DNA of 49,618 bases from a virus. The stretch lies in IMG/VR virus record IMGVR_UViG_3300045988_183527; one strand, 5' to 3'. This document shows positions 14,885-41,404 of this stretch, piece after piece; the first letter of the stretch is position 1; each line of letters opens with the position of its first letter. A program made the position numbers and the translations under genes. The notes beneath the pieces are model-generated. The model searched no databases. It was not told the DNA's origin and saw only the letters and a list, made by a program, of their open reading frames with translations.

Positions 14885-16045
14885 TCAGGGCTCTTCTTCA
14901 TTCGTCAGGGCATCCGCCCAACGCTGCATGAGCGCCCGTCGTTGCTCGAGAAGATCGGCTCTGTAGTAGGCCACCGTGGTGTTCGTTCCCCACCGATGCC
15001 CGAGGGACTTTTCTGCCTCCGCGTCGGGCTCGTGGTTTAAGGCGCACCAGTCACGGAAGGTGGAACGAATCCCGTGGGTCGTTATCTGCGGCGGCTCATC
15101 CTCATCCTCGTTTTCCTCCCCCTCAGACTTAGCCGGGGCGAGGCGGGGGCATATTTCCTGCAGATTATCCAAGACAGACTTTTTATCTACGTGCCTGCCC
15201 GCGCCTTTTCCTTCGAAGACAAAAGCTCCTTGCGAAGCCATGGCAAGCGCTTCTTCAGCAAGAGACGACAAAGGAATGCGAAGGGTGTCGTTCGTCTTTC
15301 GGTGCTTGTCCGGGCAAGTCCAAACCCCCGGCTGCAGCTCGCCTGGCTCCGCCTTACAAGCTTCGTCAACACGGCAGACCGTGGCTATGACAAAGAGCAG
15401 GCAAGCCCGAACTTTGGAAGGGTGCGCTCGGATGAAACGAACGGCGTGGCGAAGTTCGGCCATGGTTGGGGTGACAAAGTGCTCCGTTTTGTGCACCTTC
15501 CCCAGGGCGGGGAGTTTGGTGCTGAGCTTGCCTTTCCAAACGGCAGGATTTGGATCGTCGCGGTAGCCATTGTTGATGGCCCAATCAAACAGCGCCTCAA
15601 GCCTGACGCGGATAACAGAAGCGGTCGGGGGAATGGATACCCACAATGGCTCCAATAGGCTAAAGATATCTTGCCGCGTAATCGTATCGATAGGCATAGC
15701 GCCGATCACCGGGGCAACGTGGGTAAGCATGGTGCTGCGCCAGTGCTTGTACTGCGCTTCCGTTTTCCAACGACGCAACTTGCGTACCCCTTCCAAGCCT
15801 ATTGGAAGAAATTCGGCGAACGTCGGCTTCGGCGCCGCTTCTTTGGTTTTCTCCTCTGGCTTGCTGGTAAGGCAGACGGCAACGGCGTGCTTTGCGTCTC
15901 GCAATCCTATGGAATCCACGGTACCGAGGCTGCGCTCGATGCGCTTCCCGGCAATGGTTCCGCGGAACACGTAATACTCGTTGCCGTTCTCCCGCGCGTA
16001 AATGTATAGATGATCTGCGACTTTAACTTTGGTTATCTTTGACAC
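14885..16045 (-). CDS. int: Tyrosine integrase (P4-type)
   Basis: 386 aa. The N-terminal YIYARENGNEYYVFRGTIAGKRIERSLG arm-binding-type domain is present. The C-terminus carries HGIRSTFRDW...LGH...VAYY catalytic residues. GTG start with GGGGGA upstream. Confidence 0.92.
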   Translation of the reverse strand: MSKITKVKVADHLYIYARENGNEYYVFRGTIAGKRIERSLGTVDSIGLRDAKHAVAVCLTSKPEEKTKEAAPKPTFAEFLPIGLEGVRKLRRWKTEAQYKHWRSTMLTHVAPVIGAMPIDTITRQDIFSLLEPLWVSIPPTASVIRVRLEALFDWAINNGYRDDPNPAVWKGKLSTKLPALGKVHKTEHFVTPTMAELRHAVRFIRAHPSKVRACLLFVIATVCRVDEACKAEPGELQPGVWTCPDKHRKTNDTLRIPLSSLAEEALAMASQGAFVFEGKGAGRHVDKKSVLDNLQEICPRLAPAKSEGEENEDEDEPPQITTHGIRSTFRDWCALNHEPDAEAEKSLGHRWGTNTTVAYYRADLLEQRRALMQRWADALTNEEEP

Positions 16046-16714: not shown

Positions 16715-16938
16715 TTCTTCGCCTTCTTCACTCGGCGGCCTTGGCGGTAGTCATAGGCTTCCTTCAGCATCCACGCGAAGCAACGCTGGTCTTCCTCGTT
16801 CAACTTCAGCGGGGCTTCGGCTTCATCCTCGCCATTGCTGATGCGCACGTCGATGTAAATCTTGCCGCGGACGCGGCGCATGCGGAGATCGATACCCTTG
16901 CCGGTGAAACCTTCTTCGGATAAATACTTCTTGCTCAT
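16711..16938 (-). CDS. Hypothetical protein (75 aa) between endolysin and spanins
   Basis: 4-nt overlaps at both ends. The protein is charged and soluble, with no motif. Confidence 0.6.
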   Translation of the reverse strand: MSKKYLSEEGFTGKGIDLRMRRVRGKIYIDVRISNGEDEAEAPLKLNEEDQRCFAWMLKEAYDYRQGRRVKKAKK

Positions 16939-17309
16939 TTCTTTGTCCTCTTATCAAAACGCGCGGCGTAACCGCGGCGGTCTACGTGAACGAACGTGTC
17001 ATAGATTCCCACGCCGCCCGTCACGTTCAAACGGCGGCAGAGTTCCCACAGCGTGGGTAAATCTTTCTGATCCTCCGGCCGGATATCAGCGGCCAGCCCT
17101 TGGGTGTGGTAGGAATTGGGAACGCCGCCCACGTGTGCGTTCCGCGACGGACTGCGATAGCCGGACGTCACGATGAGGGGCTTACCGAAAAGGAGACGCA
17201 CACGGTTTAAAAAATCCACGAGTTCTTGGCGCACGTTCATCGGGCCCCAAGGGGAGGGGGCGCCGTCGTGGGAAGCAAACTCTTTGCTGTCGAAGAAGCC
17301 GTCTTTCAT
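16935..17309 (-). CDS. Endolysin, peptidase M15 (VanY/L-Ala-D-Glu peptidase-like)
   Basis: SGYRSPSRNAHVGGVPNSYHTQGLAADI...FVHVD supplies the H-x6-D...H zinc ligands. The start was chosen at the internal ATG 17309, which forms an ATGA overlap with the holin stop and has GGAAGG upstream. Confidence 0.85.
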   Translation of the reverse strand: MKDGFFDSKEFASHDGAPSPWGPMNVRQELVDFLNRVRLLFGKPLIVTSGYRSPSRNAHVGGVPNSYHTQGLAADIRPEDQKDLPTLWELCRRLNVTGGVGIYDTFVHVDRRGYAARFDKRTKK

Positions 17310-17602
17310 CCTTCCACCCCCGTGCGCTTGCGCAACAGGGCGAAGGCAAAGCTCACGCCTTCCTTCCCGGCAAAGCCGCCGAGGCCGGAAAGCGCGCCGT
17401 AAAGCTTCACGTCCAAACCGTAGGATTCGCCCGCAAGGGCAATGAGAAAGCCGATGAAGCCCGACAAGGCCACGGCCCAAAAGAACTCCCAACCCGAGAA
17501 GGGCTTGCCTTTCTCCCGCGAGTTGAGATACATGAGTGCTTGTGCCATAGCTGCTACCCCCGTACAAAAGAGGTAAGGAAAGAAACCGTGCTGATTGTCC
17601 AT
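17306..17602 (-). CDS. Holin
   Basis: 98 aa with three hydrophobic segments and a charged C-terminus (LLRKRTGVEG). It lies immediately upstream of, and overlapping, the endolysin. Confidence 0.7.
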   Translation of the reverse strand: MDNQHGFFPYLFCTGVAAMAQALMYLNSREKGKPFSGWEFFWAVALSGFIGFLIALAGESYGLDVKLYGALSGLGGFAGKEGVSFAFALLRKRTGVEG

Positions 17603-31222: not shown

Positions 31223-31452
31223 TTCGCACCGAATATACACTGCTGGCGGAGTACCGCGGCGGCCGGAAAGAGGAATTGTTAAACCACAAAGGGCGGCCGT
31301 GGGCGCAAGATTGGGGCGCTAAGCGCTACGGGGAAAAATACGTTACGGCCGCCGCGGGGCTGCAGTCGCTTTCTATCATCGTGCGCCGCTTTGCCCCGGA
31401 CGGCCGTTGCTTCGACCTACAAAGGAAATGGGTTTACACCGCCTCAGCTTAA
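31219..31452 (+). CDS. Hypothetical protein (77 aa), early ORFan operon
   Basis: ATGA overlap with the upstream gene. The 3' end overlaps the repressor gene 3' end by 9 nt. Confidence 0.55.
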   Translation: MIRTEYTLLAEYRGGRKEELLNHKGRPWAQDWGAKRYGEKYVTAAAGLQSLSIIVRRFAPDGRCFDLQRKWVYTASA

Positions 31453-32154
31453 TTTCCCTCCCCTTAACCAGTAGGCCGCGCGGCCTATTACCTCAGCGCC
31501 CGGCGTCAGTGGAATACACTGCGCCGGGTTTTTCTCTGTCGTAATCATCAGCTCCCCGGTAAGGGACGGCGTAAGAGTGCGAAGAATTTTCCGCCCGTCT
31601 AAATTCAAGACGAAAAAGCCGGGCGCCGGTGTCGTATCTTTCAGATCGATCAGTAATCGATCCCCGGGGATAAAACGCGGCGACATGATATCGCCCGAAA
31701 CTATCCACCCGCGGAAATCATCCGGCGCCCGGCCGGGAAAGTTCGCCGTCATATCCGCACGATCAAACAAAACCCGGGGTTTTATCCCCGGGCGTGCCTC
31801 AGGCGTATGTAAAAGCTCAATTTCGAGCGCGTCGTTTTCTTTAACGCCGCCCTCAGGGCTCACGGAAAAAGGGCGCGGCAAACTTCCCGGCGCGCGGCCG
31901 TGATCTTCGCTCATCCATCCAAGCGGTAGGCCTAAGGCCTTTTCGATTTCGAGGCATTTTGCGGGGCCTAATGAGCGGGGGCCGCCGCCGGTGTGCTTTG
32001 TTCCGGAAGCAGCTTGATACAGGTAGGGATGGCGCCGGGGTAATCCAAGCTTTACGTTTATCTCAGCGATTGATCCATGCTTAGCGGCTAAAAGCTTTAG
32101 GTTTTCCCTTCGGACGTCACCTAAGGGCAGCGATTTTGTTTCAGTTTGTAACAT
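31444..32154 (-). CDS. CI-like repressor (HTH plus S24/LexA-like C-terminal domain, catalytic dyad apparently degenerate)
   Basis: The N-terminal HTH-like region is followed by VSGDIMSPRFIPGDRLLIDL...FVLNLDGRKILRTL...VIGRAAYWL (S24 fold pattern). The canonical GDSM Ser position reads Ile, and the VxGKV Lys position reads Arg. No SD precedes the ATG. Confidence 0.75.
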   Translation of the reverse strand: MLQTETKSLPLGDVRRENLKLLAAKHGSIAEINVKLGLPRRHPYLYQAASGTKHTGGGPRSLGPAKCLEIEKALGLPLGWMSEDHGRAPGSLPRPFSVSPEGGVKENDALEIELLHTPEARPGIKPRVLFDRADMTANFPGRAPDDFRGWIVSGDIMSPRFIPGDRLLIDLKDTTPAPGFFVLNLDGRKILRTLTPSLTGELMITTEKNPAQCIPLTPGAEVIGRAAYWLRGGKLS

Positions 32155-32802: not shown

Positions 32803-32849
32803 CGGCTATGATGCGGGCTACGTGAGCAACTCGTCGGGAGCAGCGGAAG

Positions 32850-33098
32850 GTGAAGCACGAGGTGAACGAGCTAGGACGGCGCATAGGGGAAGGCCACCCC
32901 AGGGCACGCTACTCGGACGCCACGGTGGAGCAGATTCTGCGGGCTTCGGAGGCGAAGGTTTCGAGCCAGACGATCGGGGCATTGCTGAAAATGCCTTCAT
33001 CGACGGTTCGATCGATTTTGAACGGGAAAGCACGACGGCAGGAGCCGAGCGTTTGGGAGAAGCGGGCATGGCGGCTACGACGAAAGCAAAGCCAATGA
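32850..33098 (+). CDS. HTH DNA-binding protein (82 aa), first gene of the rightward operon
   Basis: GTG start with GGGAG 9 nt upstream. GHPRARYSDATVEQILRASEAKVSSQTIGALLKMPSSTVRSILNGK is a typical HTH pattern. Confidence 0.55.
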   Translation: MKHEVNELGRRIGEGHPRARYSDATVEQILRASEAKVSSQTIGALLKMPSSTVRSILNGKARRQEPSVWEKRAWRLRRKQSQ

Positions 33099-33628
33099 AG
33101 CGGGCACTGACTACCGCTTTGAAGGCGAAGCGGACGGCGGACGCAGGGCGCACTCCCCGCAAGCGCAACCAGGTGGTGCTTGCCACGAAAATCGCGGAGT
33201 ACGAGGCGGTGATGCCGGAACTGTGGGAAGCCCTCAGGAACGGCGAAAGCGCTTCGGCGGTGGCGCGAAAGCACGACATGGTTCCGGGCAATCTTCGGAG
33301 CTACGCCTGGCGAAACCACCGCGAAGAGTACGACGCGGCTCAGAAGGAAGGCGCGGATATCCTCGCCGACCGGGCGGTAGCCGCGGCGTCTCAGGCGAAC
33401 GAAGCGATGGAGACGATTGAAACGACCTACGCCGACGGATCGACGACGGTTGCGGTGAAACGCTTCGACAACGTGAACCGGGCGAAACTCGCCGCGGACT
33501 CGCTGTGGAAGATGGCGGCCACGAAAGACCCGGAACGCTACGGGTCGAAAGCGGGGCAGCAGGAAGTTTCATCGATCGCGGCGGAGATCGTCGCGGCACG
33601 TAAGCGTATTTGTTCCGAGACCACGTGA
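33068..33628 (+). CDS. HTH protein, possible small terminase subunit-like protein (186 aa)
   Basis: Internal ATG of the 32822 ORF. ESASAVARKHDMVPGNLRSYAW (HTH) and the C-terminal RAKLAADSLWKMAATKDPERYGSK resemble TerS-type proteins by eye. The gene is not adjacent to terL. Confidence 0.4.
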   Translation: MAATTKAKPMKRALTTALKAKRTADAGRTPRKRNQVVLATKIAEYEAVMPELWEALRNGESASAVARKHDMVPGNLRSYAWRNHREEYDAAQKEGADILADRAVAAASQANEAMETIETTYADGSTTVAVKRFDNVNRAKLAADSLWKMAATKDPERYGSKAGQQEVSSIAAEIVAARKRICSETT

Positions 33629-33872: not shown

Positions 33873-33947
33873 AGGGGCGTAGCCAAGCGGTAAGGCATCG
33901 GATTTTGATTCCGTTTACCGGTGGTTCGAATCCATCCGCCCCTGCCA
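33873..33947 (+). tRNA. tRNA-Gln: tRNA-Gln (anticodon UUG), CCA encoded
   Basis: Cloverleaf: AGGGGCG/CGCCCCT acceptor, a GCCAAGCGGTAAGGCA D-arm identical to the E. coli tRNA-Gln D-arm as I recall it, anticodon loop TTTTGAT, T-arm GGTGG-TTCGAAT-CCATC, and discriminator G plus CCA. Confidence 0.9.
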
Positions 33948-33954
33948 TAAGTGC

Positions 33955-34027
33955 GGGAACCTAGCTTAACGGAGAGAGCGCCGGAAGTAAACCGGAGGGC
34001 GAGGTTCGAATCCTCGGGGGCCCGCCA
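33955..34027 (+). tRNA. Non-canonical tRNA-like element (possible pseudo-tRNA), 7 nt after tRNA-Gln
   Basis: Good T-arm CGAGG-TTCGAAT-CCTCG, D-arm GCTT/GAGC, and G plus CCA at the 3' end. However, the acceptor GGGAACC/GGGGCCC has tandem A-G mismatches, the anticodon loop AAGTAAA lacks U33 (nominal GUA), and the variable region is only about 3 nt. Confidence 0.4.
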
Positions 34028-34395: not shown

Positions 34396-34638
34396 ATGCT
34401 TTACCAAGGATTTACCCCGAGAGGAATTGTCGAAATTCTTCTGAATTTCGGCTGGTCACAGAAGGACATAGGCGATGCTATCGGCCGTAGCGACGTTGCT
34501 ATCTGCAATATCGCGACAGGACGGTCGAAGCCGAAGAAGGAAACCGTTGACAAGTTGCTTGAGCTTGCAGAGCGCGAAGCGAAGAAGCTCGACGATCTTC
34601 GCGAACGCCTCGTCAACTATTTGGACGCCGCTAAATGA
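34396..34638 (+). CDS. XRE/Cro-type HTH regulator (80 aa)
   Basis: WSQKDIGDAIGRSDVAICNIATGRSKPKKETVDKL is an HTH_3-like pattern. Confidence 0.7.
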   Translation: MLYQGFTPRGIVEILLNFGWSQKDIGDAIGRSDVAICNIATGRSKPKKETVDKLLELAEREAKKLDDLRERLVNYLDAAK

Positions 34639-36986
34639 CCACTTCTTTCATCCATCGCTACGGGCCTGAGATCGCCCACGATTACCCCGTCTGCGCCATT
34701 GAGCCGGGGCAGAAGCGCCCCATCGGTAAGGAATGGCAGAAGCATCCGCTCTCACCGGAAGAATGCCGCGATTACCCGAACGAAGCCGCAGGCGTCGGCA
34801 TCATGTGCGGGCAGGGCGACAATCCGGTGTACGCCGTTGACGTAGACGTTTACGCCGATGCGGACTGCGCCCATGCCATCTACCACATGATCGAGGAGGT
34901 GACGGGCCAGGCTGATCTCCCGTACCGCGTCGGCAACTATCCGAAGCTTCTCGTTCCGCTCATTGGTACGGAAGTCGGTTGGAAAAAGATGACGACGGCC
35001 TGGTACGAGAAGGACGGCCTCCGGTCGCGCATCGAGCTTCTCGGCGACGGGCAGCAGTTTGTTGCGGCCGCCATCCACCCGGATACCAAACAGCCGTACG
35101 AATGGCACGGCGAACGTCTGGGCGGTTCGCTGATCGACATCCCTGAGGCGATGCCGATCGTTTCTCTGGCGAAGCTGCAGGACATCCTGCGGAAGGCTGA
35201 GAAGATTCTTGAAGCCCACGGTTGGCAGAAAGCGGACGGCGGTTCCGAAGTGAAGGGTACGGAGATTTCCGCCGACGAACTCGCGCCCCAATACCCGATC
35301 GGGGCTACGATTGAAGAAGCCCGTACGTGGCTGGCGGATATGCCGGGCAAGGACGATTACGACGTTTGGCTCAAAGTCGGTATGGCGCTCAATCACGAGT
35401 TCGGCAAAGGCGCATACTCGGAAGAAGCCCTGCAGGTTTGGGACGAATGGAGTCGGGGCAGTAAGAGCTACAAGGGCTTTGACGATCTGCTTTACCGTTG
35501 GACGGGTTTCGGGCGCCGACTCGGGCGCTCCGTCACCTGCCGCTGGCTTCAGTACGAGTACCAGCGCAGACACTTCGACAAGGCCGCGGAGCCGACGGAA
35601 GAAGGCCGCGCCGCGCGGTTTGCCTCGTACTTCCGAGGTTCCGTGCGTTATGCCATCGACACCGAACAGTGGTATCAGTGGACAGGGCTCTTCTGGCGGT
35701 TGCTGAGTCCGTCGGAAGCGGAAAGTCTCGCGGGGTACGCGATCGATGAACTGCTCCGTTTTGACATCGACGCGGCTCGTAAGGCGGGGAAAGAGGACGC
35801 GGAACTCGCGCAGTGGAACAAACTCTACCGTGCGATGCAGAGCGGCAACAAGCCCCGGATGATTCTCGCGGAAGCCCGCAAGTACAAGATCATTCACTGC
35901 CTCTCGACGGACTTCGACAGCAATGCTCGGTACTTCGGCGTCCGCAACGGTGCGATCGACCTTGAGACGGGGGCGTTCTGCAAACCCGAACCCGCGATGC
36001 TCATCAGCTTCCGGGCGGGTACGTCGTACGATCCTGAGGCGAAGTGCCCTACGTGGGAACAAACGGTGAGCGAAGCGTTCTTCGACGACCCCGGGATGAT
36101 CGACTACGTGCAGCGGCTTTTCGGCTACACGATCCTCGGGAAGCCGTACGAAGAAGTCATGGCGATTTTCTACGGCAACGGCTGTAACGGTAAGTCCACG
36201 ATCGTGAACGTCATGCGTGATCTCTTCGGGGACTACGGCCATACGGCAAGCGCGGAACTGCTTACGAGCGTCGGCCGCCGCTACAGTAACGCAGGCGGCG
36301 CCCGCGCTGACTTGATCGCCTTAAAGAGCAAGCGCTTTGTCGTCGTGTCGGAAATCGATCAGCGGGCGCGCATGCAGGAATCCGACATGAAAGCGCTGGT
36401 CTCGACGGACGAGGTGTCGGCCCGCGGTATGTATCAGTCGCAGATGAGCACCTTCCGTCCGACGTGGGTGGTGACGATGCTCACGAACTATCTGCCGACG
36501 ATCGACGGTACCGACAACGGCGTCTGGCGTCGTATCCATGCCGTGCCCTTTGACCGCGACTTTGACAAAGACGAGACGGTGAAGAAGGACGTGCACCGCG
36601 CTGACAAACTCCGTGCGGAACTCCCTGGCATCCTCAATTGGGTGCTCGAGGGGGTGAGAAAGTACAACGACCGCGGGTTGAAACAACCGCCGAAAGTCGC
36701 GGCTGAAAGCGCAGAGTACAAGTCGTCGCAGGACATCATCGGTGAGTGGCTCAGCGAGCGGTGCGTGAGCAAGCCCGGCGCAGCGGCGCCAACGTCCGTG
36801 GCGTGGGCGTCGTGGGACGCATTCTCAAAGCAGAACGGCTACCAGCACGACATCAACAGCAAAGCAAAGCTCACGAGGGCCTTGGCGCGTCGCGGGTTCC
36901 GGGTGCAGACGCAATGGATGAACGGCCGTAACGTGCGTTGCTATATGGGGATATCCGTCGGGGATGACTTTGAGGAGTTGTTATGA
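34635..36986 (+). CDS. Bifunctional primase-polymerase / SF3 helicase (P4 alpha / D5 family)
   Basis: N-terminal prim-pol-like domain (VGIMCGQGDNPVYAVDVDVY). C-terminal D5/P4 NTPase with FYGNGCNGKST (Walker A) and FVVVSEID (Walker B). Confidence 0.88.
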   Translation: MTTSFIHRYGPEIAHDYPVCAIEPGQKRPIGKEWQKHPLSPEECRDYPNEAAGVGIMCGQGDNPVYAVDVDVYADADCAHAIYHMIEEVTGQADLPYRVGNYPKLLVPLIGTEVGWKKMTTAWYEKDGLRSRIELLGDGQQFVAAAIHPDTKQPYEWHGERLGGSLIDIPEAMPIVSLAKLQDILRKAEKILEAHGWQKADGGSEVKGTEISADELAPQYPIGATIEEARTWLADMPGKDDYDVWLKVGMALNHEFGKGAYSEEALQVWDEWSRGSKSYKGFDDLLYRWTGFGRRLGRSVTCRWLQYEYQRRHFDKAAEPTEEGRAARFASYFRGSVRYAIDTEQWYQWTGLFWRLLSPSEAESLAGYAIDELLRFDIDAARKAGKEDAELAQWNKLYRAMQSGNKPRMILAEARKYKIIHCLSTDFDSNARYFGVRNGAIDLETGAFCKPEPAMLISFRAGTSYDPEAKCPTWEQTVSEAFFDDPGMIDYVQRLFGYTILGKPYEEVMAIFYGNGCNGKSTIVNVMRDLFGDYGHTASAELLTSVGRRYSNAGGARADLIALKSKRFVVVSEIDQRARMQESDMKALVSTDEVSARGMYQSQMSTFRPTWVVTMLTNYLPTIDGTDNGVWRRIHAVPFDRDFDKDETVKKDVHRADKLRAELPGILNWVLEGVRKYNDRGLKQPPKVAAESAEYKSSQDIIGEWLSERCVSKPGAAAPTSVAWASWDAFSKQNGYQHDINSKAKLTRALARRGFRVQTQWMNGRNVRCYMGISVGDDFEELL

Positions 36987-37219
36987 CGGGGCTGTTTGAA
37001 GAAATCGGTGTACGTGTTGACGCGGCGAATCGTGAGGGGCGGGCGATTCGCACAGCGCGGGATTTAGCCGACAAAGCAATGGGCGCATTAGAACGGAGCA
37101 CACCCGCCAGCAAAGTAAAAGGGACTACCGTTTGTCAGGTTTGCGATTGGCTGGCGGAGATTTTCTGCCTGCTGGAAGCCCCTGAAAAGGAAGAGGATAA
37201 GCGTCGTGGTCGCGCGTAA
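36983..37219 (+). CDS. Hypothetical protein (78 aa)
   Basis: ATGA overlap with the primase stop. GAGGAG RBS. Confidence 0.55.
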   Translation: MTGLFEEIGVRVDAANREGRAIRTARDLADKAMGALERSTPASKVKGTTVCQVCDWLAEIFCLLEAPEKEEDKRRGRA

Positions 37220-37243
37220 AATCGTTTGAAGGAGGGCATGGTT

Positions 37244-37684
37244 ATGGGACTGACGAGAGATCGTAACGCTCTGTTGAGCCAAGATGAAATCGAGGCCATT
37301 AAGGTGTGCCAAGGCATCATCAATCGTATGGCTGAGAATTCGGCCAAGGCGAAGAATCTCTTTTTCACAATCTCCGCCGCCTTTGTAGCGTTGCTGGGCT
37401 CATCGGCTTTCGAAGTCGATGAGCGGACGCTCGGCGGATACGCTGTGATCTCCATCGCGCTGTGGTACGTGGATGCGCGATATCTGCAGTTGGAGCAGAT
37501 GTTTCGCGGCGTCCATCGGCGCATCATCAACGGTTGCCTGCCTTACTTGGACGCTTGGATGTTCAAGCCCACGAAGGAAGACGCGGCGTCCATTTGGAAG
37601 CTCATGCTTTGGAACTTCTCGACGATGGTGTACCCGGCGGTAGCGGCGGCGTTGATTGCGATAGCGTTACTTGCCAGCGCGTAG
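37244..37684 (+). CDS. Small membrane protein (146 aa; N-terminal amphipathic helix plus 3 hydrophobic segments), possible SLATT-like effector
   Basis: ATG 37244 lies 8 nt after GGAGG. TM candidates are LFFTISAAFVALLGSSAF, GGYAVISIALWYV and MVYPAVAAALIAIALLASA. The 3' end overlaps the TIR-like gene 3' end by 18 nt. Confidence 0.6.
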   Translation: MGLTRDRNALLSQDEIEAIKVCQGIINRMAENSAKAKNLFFTISAAFVALLGSSAFEVDERTLGGYAVISIALWYVDARYLQLEQMFRGVHRRIINGCLPYLDAWMFKPTKEDAASIWKLMLWNFSTMVYPAVAAALIAIALLASA

Positions 37685-38152
37685 GCAGGCTTCTTCGATC
37701 CATTCGCCGATGTTTTCTGCCCCGTTGTTGCTGATCCAATGGTATTGGTTGATTTGGTAGCCGAGGCCGGAAGTGTAGAGGCCGTGATAGCTATAAGGAT
37801 CGAATCCGTAGCCACAGATGCTGCCGTCTTTTCGGCGCATGCCGTCAAGGTGGACGATGAAGCGAGCCATGCACTTTTCACTCGCGAGTTGCAACTCGAA
37901 CTTCACCCAATCACTTTGGTAGGTTTTCTCGCCGACAAAGAGGATGAGGCAGGAGCAGCCCTCCATGTTGCGTCTGATCCAATTCTCAATGGCCTTGGGA
38001 TCGGTTAAGCCTTCTTCGGCGGGTACGCCTTTAATAAAACCGACTTCTTCGCGGCCTACGACGATCGGTCGGTTAATGATCTGATTGACGAGCCAGGCGT
38101 CGTCCCAATCGTAGGACGGGAAGACGATTCTGAATTTTGGTTGTGTTGTCAA
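37667..38152 (-). CDS. TIR-like domain protein (MTH538/DUF1863 type, ThsB-like)
   Basis: TTG start 38152 lies 5 nt after GGAGG. The pattern KFRIVFPSYDWDD...CSCLILFVGEKTYQSDWVKFELQLASEK...FIVHLDGM...YHWISNNGAENIGEWIEEA follows the DUF1863 TIR-like layout. Confidence 0.7.
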   Translation of the reverse strand: MTTQPKFRIVFPSYDWDDAWLVNQIINRPIVVGREEVGFIKGVPAEEGLTDPKAIENWIRRNMEGCSCLILFVGEKTYQSDWVKFELQLASEKCMARFIVHLDGMRRKDGSICGYGFDPYSYHGLYTSGLGYQINQYHWISNNGAENIGEWIEEACLRAGK

Positions 38153-38246
38153 AGTTTTCCTCCGTGAGGTGGTTAATGGGGCAGAGATTGCTGGGCCCTG
38201 CACCTGCAATCATCTCACGGGGGTCTTGGAAAAGAAAGGAGTAAGT

Positions 38247-38705
38247 ATGACATACCCTGTTTGTCCCTTGCCCGAAGTTGAACTTCGCGGGCGCAAGGAG
38301 CGTGAACGCGATGCGGCTATCGCGGCGGCGTTCCACGAAATTGCTACTAGCGCCCAAGCCCTCGGCGCGCATCCGGCGAAAGTCCTTTTGTCTCGCATCG
38401 AACAGCTCTGCAAAGAATGCCGCGACACACTGGAGAAGCCGCTTCTCATGGACATTTTGTTGACGACCGAGTGGAGCTACGTGATTAAGAACGGCGATTA
38501 TGAAGACGCTGGGTTTAGAGCCATATCGAAGGACGAAAAGCTCATGGTGATTATGTATCCGCGGGAAAAGGCTGCCGCTGTTTACCCTCTCGACGCCGAA
38601 GGCGGCATGGACGTAGATAAGGGGCCTTCGGTGCAGGAAAAGCTTGTCGCGTTCGACTGGAAACGCGCCATGGCGGTTTTCGATCGGCTGATGAGACGGC
38701 CCTGA
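38247..38705 (+). CDS. Hypothetical protein (152 aa), first gene of the SPFH operon
   Basis: ATG 38247 preceded by AAAGGAG. Divergent from the TIR-like gene. Confidence 0.6.
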   Translation: MTYPVCPLPEVELRGRKERERDAAIAAAFHEIATSAQALGAHPAKVLLSRIEQLCKECRDTLEKPLLMDILLTTEWSYVIKNGDYEDAGFRAISKDEKLMVIMYPREKAAAVYPLDAEGGMDVDKGPSVQEKLVAFDWKRAMAVFDRLMRRP

Positions 38706-38706
38706 T

Positions 38707-38892
38707 ATGAACCGCGCACTTTGGATAACGATTGCAGGAATCGTTGTTTTCCTTTTGTATACCTGCGTCGCCCCGGCGCTTTTGTCGTCGGACGACTTTA
38801 TCTGCATCACACTCGGCTTGCTGGTCGTGGCATTGCCGATTGTGGCGGGGGCTATGTATTTCACTCTGAGGAAGAAAAATGTTGAAGAATGA
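38707..38892 (+). CDS. Small 2-TM membrane protein (61 aa), NfeD-like position upstream of the SPFH gene
   Basis: LWITIAGIVVFLLYTCVAPALL and ICITLGLLVVALPIVAGAMYF. Overlaps the SPFH gene start by 14 nt. Confidence 0.6.
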   Translation: MNRALWITIAGIVVFLLYTCVAPALLSSDDFICITLGLLVVALPIVAGAMYFTLRKKNVEE

Positions 38893-39742
38893 AAACGGGT
38901 ACGTCGGTGCGTTCACTGCGGCGGTGACGGCGCTTGTCGGCTTAGGCGCGGCGGCTTATGCGCTTTGGGCGTTGACGACGATCGAAGCTGGGTACGTCGG
39001 TGTTCGCGTGAACCTTTACGCCGACAAGGGCGTGCAGAATGAAGTCGTCGGTACCGGGCGGTACTTTCTCGGAATCAACGAGCAAATGTATCGCTTCCCG
39101 ACGTTCAACCAGTTGAAGAACTACGAGCAGCCGTTCTTGTTCCAATCGTCCGACGCAATGGAAATCAAGGCTCGTATCGGCGTTGAGTACAACATCGATC
39201 CGAAGAAGGCGGCCACTGTTTTTGCCACGTACCGCAAGGGCATCGATGAGATTACGGAAGTCAACATCCGCCAATATATCTCCGATTCTCTCATCAAGAA
39301 CGCGACGCTGATGGACGTGAACGCCATTACGCAGGGCGGCAAGTCGAAGCTTCTCGAAGACGTCACGAAGGAAATCCGCGCCAAGCTTGATCCGGTCGGC
39401 ATCCGCATCGTGAAGCTTTCGTGGATGGACGACCTGCAGTACCCGGCCCAGGTGCGGGCTTCCATCAACGCCAAGATCGAGGCGACGCAGCGCGCTTTGC
39501 TCCGTGAAAACGAAGTCGCGCAGTCCAAGGCGGAAGCCGAAAAGCTCCGCGTGGCGGCGCAAGGTGAAGCCGATGCGCGTCTTACCCGCGCCAAGGCCGA
39601 GGCTGAGGCGATCGCCATCAAGGCGAAGGCACTGCGCGACAACCCCGGCATCCTGCAGTTGAACGCTATCGACAAGTGGAACGGCGTGTTGCCGCAGTAC
39701 ATGACAGGCGGCGCAACGGTTCCCTTTGTCCCGGTGAAGTGA
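38879..39742 (+). CDS. SPFH/band-7 (prohibitin/HflC-like) membrane protein
   Basis: N-terminal TM, then IEAGYVGVRVNLYADKG...IRIVKLSWMDDLQYPAQVRASINAKIEATQRA...AEAEK coiled coil, which is the typical SPFH architecture. Confidence 0.85.
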   Translation: MLKNENGYVGAFTAAVTALVGLGAAAYALWALTTIEAGYVGVRVNLYADKGVQNEVVGTGRYFLGINEQMYRFPTFNQLKNYEQPFLFQSSDAMEIKARIGVEYNIDPKKAATVFATYRKGIDEITEVNIRQYISDSLIKNATLMDVNAITQGGKSKLLEDVTKEIRAKLDPVGIRIVKLSWMDDLQYPAQVRASINAKIEATQRALLRENEVAQSKAEAEKLRVAAQGEADARLTRAKAEAEAIAIKAKALRDNPGILQLNAIDKWNGVLPQYMTGGATVPFVPVK

Positions 39743-39745
39743 TTC

Positions 39746-39800
39746 CGTAGGTGCTCGTAGCCGTTCGTAGACGTCCGACAGCTGACGAATGAAAACGGAC
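39746..39800 (+). repeat. 10-bp phased CG(T/A/G)A-type repeats (CGTAG x3, then CGACA, CGAAT, CGGAC) just upstream of terL
   Basis: CGTAG at 39746, 39756 and 39766, followed by related pentamers at 39776, 39786 and 39796. Confidence 0.5.
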
Positions 39801-39812
39801 TTGAGTCCGACG

Positions 39813-39847
39813 ATGCCCTTTCAGATCAACACTGAGGGGGCATTTTT
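39813..39847 (+). terminator. Hairpin ATGCCCTTTCAG-loop-CTGAGGGGGCAT followed by TTTTT, abutting the terL start codon
   Basis: Read directly. The T run ends at the ATG at 39848. Confidence 0.5.
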
Positions 39848-41404
39848 ATGGACTCAAAAACCGCGCAGCTTTTGGCGGAGGACTTGGCGGCTTGTTATGA
39901 CGATCCTCTCCGTTTTGTCCTTTGGGCGTTTCCTTGGGGCACGATGCCGGAAATGTCGCTGGTGAAGCTTCCGGAGAAGTGGCGGGCGAAGTATCCGAAC
40001 TGCGAATACGGCCCCGACGTGTGGGCGTGCGAATTGTTGGACGACGTGGGTCGCCAGGTGAAGGAGCGCAAGTTCGACGGCAAGCACGCCGTGGAGCCGA
40101 TTCGCATGGCAGTGGCGTCCGGGCACGGGATTGGCAAAAGTTGCATCACCGCATGGATTGTGTGTTGGATCATGGCGACGCGTCCCAACTGTAAGGGCGT
40201 CGTGACGGCCAACACGGCGGCGCAGCTTGAGACGAAGACGTGGGCTGAAATCACAAAGTGGATGCGGCGCTCCCTCGTGAAGGATTTGTTTGACTGCAAG
40301 TCCACGTCCATCACGGCATTGGAGTCGCCGGAATCGTGGCGGGTGGACGCGCTCACTTGCCGCGAAGAAAACGCCGAATCTTTCGCAGGCCAGCACGCGG
40401 CTTCTTCGACGCCTTTCTACGTCTTTGACGAAGCGTCCGCTATCCCCGAGGCCGTCTACGACGTGGCTGAAGGCGGCCTGACCGACGGTGAGCCGATGAT
40501 CTTTCTCTTCGGCAACCCGACGCGTAACAGCGGCCGATTCTTCGAGTGCTTCCACAAGCGCTCCAAGTATTGGAACACACGCACGATTGATAGCCGCAAC
40601 GTCGCCATCACCAACAAAAAGCAGATCGCCCAATGGGAGGAAGAGTACGGGGAGGACTCCGACTTCTTCAAAGTCCGCGTGAAGGGCGAGTTCCCAAGCC
40701 AAGGCGCCGATCAGTTCATCCCGGCGGCGCGTGTGCGTGCGGCGATGGATCGGGGTTCTCTCGCGACGAACGCGGCGACGTGCGCCATGGTGGGCGTGGA
40801 CGTGGCGCGGTTCGGCGACGACGACACGGTGATCTTTACCCGCATCGGGCGCGACGGGGCGACGGTACCGGTGAAGCGGTTCCACGGGCTCAACACGGTG
40901 CAGGTGGTGGGGCAGGTGAAGGAGCATATCCGCTACCTCCGTACGACGCTCAAGGTGCCCCGTGTGCACGTGTTCGTGGACGAAGGCGGCGTCGGTGGCG
41001 GCCCCGTGGATATCCTCAAAGAAGACGGATTCCCCGTGCGCGGCATCAACTTTGCCGAGACGCCGGACGACAAGGACAAATACCCCGGCAAGCGCGAGGA
41101 GATGTGGGATCGCATGGCCGAGTGGCTGAAAGAAGGATCGCTCCCGGACGACAAGGAGCTGCAGGAGGATTTGGTGTCTCCGACGTATTCCTTTGACACC
41201 TACGGTCGCAAGAAGCTCGAAAGCAAGAAGGATATGAAAAAGCGGGGGCTCCGTTCTCCGGACGCCGCCGACGCCGTGGCGCTCACCTTTGCCTGCCGCG
41301 TGAACGAGTACGAGGGCGAATACGGCGGACGCCGGGAAAGCCAGCTGGCGCAGGGGCGGCGCAACTACAACCCCTTTGCGAATCTCATGCGGAAGTTCTT
41401 CTGA
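39848..41404 (+). CDS. terL: Terminase large subunit
   Basis: ASGHGIGKSC (Walker A), FYVFDEASAI (Walker B), a C-terminal nuclease-type region, and position ahead of the portal. Confidence 0.9.
   Translation: MDSKTAQLLAEDLAACYDDPLRFVLWAFPWGTMPEMSLVKLPEKWRAKYPNCEYGPDVWACELLDDVGRQVKERKFDGKHAVEPIRMAVASGHGIGKSCITAWIVCWIMATRPNCKGVVTANTAAQLETKTWAEITKWMRRSLVKDLFDCKSTSITALESPESWRVDALTCREENAESFAGQHAASSTPFYVFDEASAIPEAVYDVAEGGLTDGEPMIFLFGNPTRNSGRFFECFHKRSKYWNTRTIDSRNVAITNKKQIAQWEEEYGEDSDFFKVRVKGEFPSQGADQFIPAARVRAAMDRGSLATNAATCAMVGVDVARFGDDDTVIFTRIGRDGATVPVKRFHGLNTVQVVGQVKEHIRYLRTTLKVPRVHVFVDEGGVGGGPVDILKEDGFPVRGINFAETPDDKDKYPGKREEMWDRMAEWLKEGSLPDDKELQEDLVSPTYSFDTYGRKKLESKKDMKKRGLRSPDAADAVALTFACRVNEYEGEYGGRRESQLAQGRRNYNPFANLMRKFF

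Follow-up and report, generated by a model that had tools for sequence, protein, structure and literature searches.

TIR proteins of the ThsB type signal to many effector families, and in Thoeris types II, V, VI, VII and X the effector is a small membrane protein (10.64898/2025.12.03.692087). The type V effector, ThsF (DUF2270), spans the membrane with three helices; it is triggered by 3'cADPR, and in the published model it forms a homo-oligomeric ring whose positively charged pockets, located between protomers, are proposed to bind the signal (10.64898/2025.12.03.692087). A further system, the PADLOC phage defence candidate PDC-M50, comes from a guilt-by-embedding screen (10.1101/2024.01.29.577857). 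The present analysis concerns two adjacent genes in the IMG/VR virus record IMGVR_UViG_3300045988_183527, a stretch of 49,618 nucleotides (nt) that is referred to in its entirety as the window. One gene (37667-38152, minus strand) encodes a TIR protein of 161 amino acids (aa), and the other (37244-37684, plus strand) encodes a 146-aa protein with three transmembrane (TM) helices, called the three-TM protein below.

The pair corresponds to the PADLOC candidate PDC-M50 (PADLOC-DB v2.0.0), because the three-TM and TIR proteins match its A and B models, respectively, and their genes are adjacent. It is a phage-borne member of this catalogued Thoeris-like candidate family and is located in a defence hotspot. 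By analogy with Thoeris, the two genes probably form an anti-phage cassette of a temperate phage, in which the TIR protein would signal to a three-TM membrane effector. The first-pass annotation of this DNA, made without database searches, had proposed a prophage-carried, Thoeris-like module without ThsA. This remains the best reading of the TIR/three-TM pair but not of five genes as one system. The gene combination, which had been thought undescribed, is that of PDC-M50, and Thoeris types II, V, VI, VII and X, which combine a TIR with a TM effector, have been published (10.64898/2025.12.03.692087).

The TIR protein and its three-TM partner

Judged from profile searches and a structural model, the window TIR is a stand-alone protein of the ThsB type (DUF1863). 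It matches the Pfam family ThsB_TIR (PF08937; E = 1e-9, above the curated cut-off) and the PADLOC models ThsB (E = 5e-26) and PDC-M50B (E = 1.3e-25). Searched against the Protein Data Bank (PDB), a profile of 23 TIR homologues retrieved the solved ThsB structures 8wcf (EcThsB; 3e-22), 6lhy (BcThsB; 2.5e-16) and 9b7d (2.5e-16). The AlphaFold2 (AF2) model has a predicted local distance difference test score (pLDDT) of 88, and its best Foldseek match is 8wcf (deposited as 'EcThsB'; TM-score 0.77), followed by BcThsB and ThsB1. The WxxxE motif of the protein is formed by W82 and E86 (WVKFE); E86 is kept in 22 of the 23 homologues and is aligned with the glutamate of the BcThsB motif WVRYE. The suggestion that this gene encodes a ThsB-like TIR thus holds, and the catalytic glutamate that was to be sought in a WVKFELQ motif is present as E86. 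By analogy with Thoeris, the protein is a candidate infection sensor and signal synthase.

The 146-aa protein matches four PADLOC PDC-M50A models (best E = 1.2e-14, residues 14-142), and models of this set are matched by all 38 diverse relatives that were compared. The family is large: HMMER with a 29-sequence profile retrieved 5109 cluster representatives at E <= 1e-3, almost all of them stand-alone proteins of 130-160 aa. The AF2 model (pLDDT 90.8) has helices at residues 13-52, 60-96 and 117-145, with hydrophobic cores at about 38-52, 62-76 and 120-145. Hydropathy across the family agrees with this arrangement, and the three hydrophobic segments noticed initially are therefore real features of the model and of the family. 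The first helix is 40 residues long and its C-terminal part constitutes TM1; the second begins as TM2 and then leaves the membrane; residues 117-145 form TM3.

Two patches are strongly conserved among 102 family members. The residues Q23, I26, R28, M29, N32, S33 and K37 before TM1 (motif Q..I.RMA.NS...K) and W74, D77, Y80, L81, E84, R/Q85 and R88 after TM2 (motif FW.LD..YL..E[RQ]..R) are near-invariant. Helices 1 and 2 form a hairpin, and the patches are found at its membrane-proximal ends, on one and the same side of the membrane. This side is presumably the cytoplasm. The loop between TM1 and TM2 is short, and nearly all non-membrane residues are on the other side of the membrane from it. 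Charge counts across the family do not settle the orientation. By analogy with the membrane effectors of Thoeris, the three-TM protein is a candidate signal-gated membrane effector.

Pfam matches among 140 three-TM relatives are weak and scattered (DUF3278 in 18, 8xMP in 13, DUF2270 in five and SLATT_1 in one). The best values for DUF3278 (1.8e-5) and for 8xMP, an octameric membrane protein family (4.5e-5), are both below threshold, and a literature search for '8xMP' returned nothing relevant. On these sequence matches, DUF3278 and 8xMP could be remote relatives of the three-TM family.

The two genes converge, and their 3' ends overlap by 18 nt (37667-37684), as is read directly in the sequence and as was reported initially. 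The three-TM gene has GGAGG upstream, and the TIR gene has a TTG start located 5 nt 3' of a GGAGGA Shine-Dalgarno sequence. Because the 3' ends overlap, there is no space for a terminator between the genes. Terminator-like sites were not above chance in a regulatory scan.

The TIR and three-TM genes form a conserved, mobile pair that is carried by prophages and also located in defence islands of chromosomes. Six TIR homologues (50-68% identity) led to 11 loci (L001-L011) in six different phage or prophage backbones, and in each locus a homologous gene of about 142 aa converges on the TIR gene. Sixty loci were retrieved through the three-TM protein alone, from 16 viral contigs and 44 GTDB genomes, and 47 of these have a directly adjacent TIR open reading frame (ORF) that is detected by hidden Markov model (HMM). 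The TIR ORF is on the opposite strand in 12 of the 47 and on the same strand in 35, and seven loci have two TIRs. The co-occurrence that was to be sought in related genomes is therefore found for the TIR and three-TM genes, although it does not extend to the other genes discussed below. Hosts of the pair include Desulfovibrio, Bilophila, Spirochaetia, Alphaproteobacteria, Arenicellales, Oligoflexales, Campylobacterota, Prevotella and many Dehalococcoidia.

L001-L019, L021 and L028-L030 share the tail-to-tail layout; at one extreme the 3' ends overlap by 33 nt, and at the other about 50 nt separates them. Judged from the sequences compared, convergence with overlap characterises a phage-borne subclade that includes the window, and distant members are ordinary operons. 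In the prophages L006, L008 and L010 the TIR gene has the orientation of the integrase or repressor genes, which is consistent with TIR expression in the lysogen.

Chromosomal copies are located among defence genes. Defence models are matched by nine of 10 chromosomal neighbour genes tested, namely Type I methyltransferases in five loci, Type I restriction enzymes in two and AbiEii and DruE in one each. In six loci of Dehalococcoidia/Chloroflexota (L039, L043, L047, L054, L057 and L067) the three-TM gene often stands between two different TIR genes; a methyltransferase of Type I restriction-modification (R-M) adjoins it in five of the six, DruE is found in L039, and AbiEii is found in L051. 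In a metagenome-assembled genome of Prevotella (L036:3589-4493) the gene after the three-TM gene encodes a TIR that belongs to the 'SHSW' clade (E = 1.7e-22) rather than to the DUF1863/ThsB clade; the three-TM effector family therefore partners at least two TIR lineages.

The slot after the primase and neighbouring genes

The window is a temperate phage with a tyrosine integrase gene at 14885-16045. The pair follows the primase gene (34635-36986, plus strand; from the ORF list and the raw sequence) and a 78-aa ORF (36983-37219, plus strand) whose ATG overlaps the primase stop codon. It was compared with sister phages, four IMG/VR contigs that share 95-99% identity with the window over primase and terminase (L012 is the same contig as L153). 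The sister phages L154 and L155 retain the primase, an ORFan gene, a 61-aa gene and the large terminase gene but carry neither the TIR nor the three-TM gene. According to blastn, the flanks of L154 are 95-96% identical to the window, and 36992-38272 is replaced by 925 nt, as it is in L155. The exchangeable slot thus comprises the 78-aa ORF, the three-TM and TIR genes and the intergenic region between the TIR and ORFan genes.

The 925-nt replacement encodes an antisense 233-aa protein (L154:3064-3765, minus strand; also in L155) with a zinc finger and a DUF4145 domain (Pfam 9e-13), which matches the PADLOC model PD-T7-4 (1.8e-29). PD-T7-4 is RAZR, an experimentally characterised zinc-finger/HEPN RNase defence system (PMC13017515). 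Because near-isogenic phages swap the TIR/three-TM pair for a RAZR homologue, the slot after the primase is regarded as a defence hotspot, and both alternative cassettes run antisense to the surrounding phage genes. Defence hotspots are known from P2/P4-type elements. The post-primase slot extends this idea to gut-type temperate phages; in this lineage, the TIR/three-TM pair and a RAZR homologue are alternative cassettes.

A small terminase gene had been expected at this position. Such a gene, of the Sf6 type (TerS), is already present at 32822-33628, and in the related phages L015-L019 the gene for the large terminase (TerL; 39848-41404, plus strand, in the window) directly follows the primase. 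The packaging genes are unusually split: TerS is located some 6 kb upstream of TerL, and the genes for tRNA-Gln and tRNA-Tyr (33873-34027), a small helix-turn-helix (HTH) gene (34396-34638), the primase gene and the accessory slot are located between the two. The TerL of the sister phages (L012:6565-9174; also L153-L155) has an in-frame insertion of 351 aa at window codons 97/98, with Hom_end and LAGLIDADG_3 domains. By its domains the insertion resembles an intein that contains a homing endonuclease, and the window TerL is without it.

Beyond the TIR gene, a divergent intergenic region of 94 nt (38153-38246; delimited by position) is followed on the plus strand by a 152-aa ORFan gene (38247-38705), a gene for a 61-aa protein with two TM helices (38707-38892) and an SPFH/Band-7 gene (38879-39742) whose 287-aa product has an N-terminal membrane anchor. 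The boundaries originally assigned to the genes of this region agree with the ORF list and the raw sequence. The TIR gene and the ORFan/2-TM/SPFH genes presumably have their promoters in this intergenic region. The GC content is 54.6% at 37-39 kb and 57-62% in the flanks, in agreement with the first impression of a less GC-rich region, and is 52.3% for the TIR gene and 49.5% for the 61-aa gene.

The Band-7 identity of the SPFH protein is supported by a Pfam match over residues 34-221 (PF01145; E = 4.2e-22), preceded by a hydrophobic N-terminus; matches to HflK/HflC models are far below the cut-offs. The SPFH gene matches phrog_200 (4.7e-77), and the 61-aa/SPFH module also matches phrog_1130 (1.3e-5) but no PADLOC defence model. 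At least 103 relatives of the SPFH protein are encoded in viral contigs, and 80 loci were retained (L073-L152). A small TM ORF is located directly upstream of the SPFH gene in 68 of them; these ORFs mostly encode 55-75 aa and two TM helices, and many have a P.L.SS.D-like motif as in the 61-aa protein of the window. No homologue of the TIR or of the three-TM protein is encoded within 4 kb in any of the 80 phage SPFH loci, and no SPFH gene is present among the called neighbours in any of the 11 TIR-derived loci. The 61-aa and SPFH genes are therefore a widespread phage module of their own. A search of cultured phages with the DNA of the region returned weak SPFH matches only.

The individual pieces also come and go among the sister phages. 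L012 retains the three-TM, TIR, ORFan and 61-aa genes; it lacks 38862-39688, which is nearly all of the SPFH gene and is absent from L153-L155 as well. In L012 an unrelated 93-aa ORF replaces the 78-aa ORF and the TIR pair is retained. The 152-aa ORFan is found only in three near-identical phage contigs and is present in L154 and L155 without the TIR pair. Searches of Pfam, PADLOC, PHROG and NCBIfam gave no family match for the ORFan or for the 78-aa ORF. The 78-aa ORF, the ORFan and the 61-aa/SPFH genes are separate accessory genes that do not belong to the TIR system, and the apparent island consists of three independent pieces rather than one system. For annotators this is a caution that what appears to be one phage island can be several independently mobile modules. 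The SPFH gene is also bracketed by a 16-nt direct repeat (38883-38898 and 39783-39798; 15 of 16 positions identical), which does not coincide with the end-points of the deletion in L012.

A 236-aa protein (31444-32154, minus strand) is encoded next to TerS, in a position like that of an HTH_3 protein in L003. By eye it has a motif (GDIMSP...GD) reminiscent of S24 (LexA/CI) peptidases, and it has no Pfam or profile match. On the strength of this motif the protein may be a candidate for the phage repressor.

Possible mechanism and competing explanations

The mechanism proposed for the pair is drawn by analogy, because Thoeris types II, V and VII pair a TIR signal with a membrane effector, and this holds for every step from sensing to membrane breach. 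In a lysogen, the TIR protein would sense an incoming phage and, through E86 of the WxxxE motif, would turn NAD+ into a signal derived from ADP-ribose. The signal would bind to a predicted cytoplasmic, juxtamembrane pocket of Arg, Lys and aromatic residues in a three-TM oligomer, made up of the two near-invariant motifs. The three-TM protein would then oligomerise or open, and the resulting breach of the membrane would abort the infection.

Several points count against this account. PDC-M50 is a computational candidate, and a literature search found no paper naming it. Binding of a signal by the three-TM protein is conjectural, since the protein has no recognised ligand-binding domain, no matching fold in the PDB (Foldseek comparison of its model gave nothing below E = 1.6) and no Pfam or NCBIfam family. 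Just about 75 of its residues are outside the membrane. Expression in the lysogen is deduced from gene orientation only, because a scan of 36800-39900 for the sigma-70 consensus gave no match. Furthermore, 13 of the 60 three-TM loci have no adjacent TIR that is detectable by HMM, although two of these (L024 and L061) stop at a contig edge and three others (L023, L047 and L049) have a TIR-like ORF by eye. The roles of sensor and killer are likewise assigned to the TIR and three-TM proteins by analogy.

These two roles might be reversed. The three-TM protein would then be a sensor or anchor, responding for example to membrane perturbation at DNA injection, and the TIR, activated by it, would kill by depletion of NAD+ with no diffusible signal. 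TIR domains are NAD+-depleting effectors in CBASS, Pycsar and pAgo systems (10.64898/2025.12.03.692087); moreover, the three-TM protein has no known nucleotide-binding domain, and a membrane sensor would suit superinfection exclusion by a prophage. Nevertheless, a reversal is improbable, as the TIR is a stand-alone member of the ThsB family whose nearest structures (8wcf, 6lhy and 9b7d) are from Thoeris, the effectors of types II, V, VI, VII and X are small TM proteins, and several loci have two different TIRs around one three-TM gene, which is the Thoeris pattern of many sensors and one effector. The size of the three-TM protein is also that of a holin, and the overlapping convergent transcripts could give antisense control, so that the pair could be imagined as a toxin-antitoxin (addiction) or lysis-timing pair in which a holin-like toxin is restrained by the convergent TIR transcript or protein. 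It is very unlikely that this is its function: most members of the three-TM family are in co-directional operons with no overlap, the obligate partner is a TIR of the catalytic type with a conserved active-site glutamate, and lysis genes are found elsewhere, both in the window (endolysin, 16935-17567) and in L010, where a GTA_holin_3TM gene adjoins a lysozyme gene apart from the pair.

The module is phage-borne, and phage sponge proteins are known to target NAD-derived signalling (10.64898/2025.12.03.692087). A counter-defence function was among the early suggestions; the TIR would then consume or mimic Thoeris-type signals of the host or reshape NAD metabolism for the benefit of the phage. 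However, distant homologous pairs are located in bacterial chromosomes amid R-M, AbiE and Druantia genes, the allelic alternative in sister phages is itself a defence gene (the RAZR homologue), and the carrier is a temperate phage. The TIR gene is antisense to lytic genes and, in three prophages, is aligned with lysogeny genes. In addition, tblastn of the TIR and three-TM proteins against 50,697 cultured phage records gave no match. These observations, in particular the chromosomal defence-island context and the RAZR swap, disfavour counter-defence, which is left with only a slim chance of being correct. Almost no credence can be given to the idea that the whole region 36983-39742 is one multi-gene TIR or abortive-infection system with several membrane effectors. 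Its genes adjoin one another, have a lower GC content in common and include a back-to-back arrangement, but none of the 80 SPFH loci has a TIR or three-TM gene, and none of the 11 TIR loci has an SPFH gene among its called neighbours; L012 has the pair with the SPFH gene gone and the 78-aa ORF replaced, and L154 and L155 have the ORFan and 61-aa genes without the pair.

The reading of the pair as a TIR that signals to a three-TM membrane effector has a bolder extension, namely that it is a functional further type of Thoeris whose 146-aa effector would be among the smallest that are signal gated, and that the convergent overlap couples effector dosage to the transcriptional state of the prophage. 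We consider this extension unlikely, if attractive. Were it true, in the phage-borne subclade the TIR gene would be read with the lysogeny genes and the effector gene with the lytic genes, and the effectors would belong to a family of >5000 sequence clusters that has no Pfam model. The core of 909 bp (37244-38152) is a compact natural example of an abundant family that combines a TIR with a membrane effector. The pair would not surprise specialists and is a good, compact candidate for validation; if validated, it would be a Thoeris type with an effector of little more than three helices and would inform how NAD-derived signals gate membrane proteins.

Comparison with known systems

The 61-aa and 287-aa genes share families and gene order with phage and bacterial modules of an SPFH protein and a small membrane partner (phrog_200 and phrog_1130; HflK/C-like). 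The TIR pair is unrelated to this module, which has no PADLOC defence match, and the comparisons that follow therefore concern the TIR and three-TM genes.

Type I Thoeris differs from the window in its ThsA, a SIR2-SLOG protein. No such protein is found by PADLOC among the matches listed for the 66 window proteins (25 of 28 matched families), which are just ThsB, PDC-M50A and PDC-M50B and generic SNF2 and Cas4-like matches; the absence of a ThsA-type partner from the first description agrees with this result. In type II (ThsB and TM-Macro) the scheme of a TIR acting on a membrane effector would, by analogy, be alike, but the window effector has no Macro domain and is too short. In type V (ThsB and ThsF) the likeness is greater in form, as three helices and conserved juxtamembrane Arg and Lys residues are found in the window effector, too. 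Nevertheless, Pfam profile comparison gives no PF10028 match for it at E <= 1, and among its relatives PF10028 is matched by two of 38 and three of 102, with a best E of 0.028, which is below a credible threshold.

The scheme of type VII (ThsB and SLATT) would be alike by the same analogy, but the window effector has no SLATT domain. A resemblance to SLATT effectors had been suggested from topology; the window protein has no SLATT match, SLATT_1 is matched by one of 38 relatives (E = 0.054), and no SLATT is among the 25 families listed for 102 further relatives. Filing the three-TM protein under type V or type VII was rejected, because the family matches are just scattered and weak.

A putative '3TM' class of Thoeris effectors is listed in the examined portion of Table S1 of 10.64898/2025.12.03.692087. 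As in the window, this class has a TIR beside a three-TM protein, and the TIR of L036 is of the 'SHSW' kind that the class has. The TIRs listed for it in that portion are of a different clade from the DUF1863/ThsB TIR of the window, effector sequences are not given there, and none of six short motif strings from the window TIR family occurs in the portion examined. The '3TM' class and the window three-TM protein may belong to the same effector family, the link between them being one locus, L036.

With Thoeris in general, the window shares a stand-alone ThsB-type TIR with the WxxxE glutamate and a conserved adjacent gene. With PDC-M50 it shares the two-gene composition and the embedding of family members in R-M loci. 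The window copy differs in layout, as its genes are convergent and overlapping, whereas in 35 of the 47 loci with an adjacent TIR, from more distant family members, the two genes form a co-directional operon.

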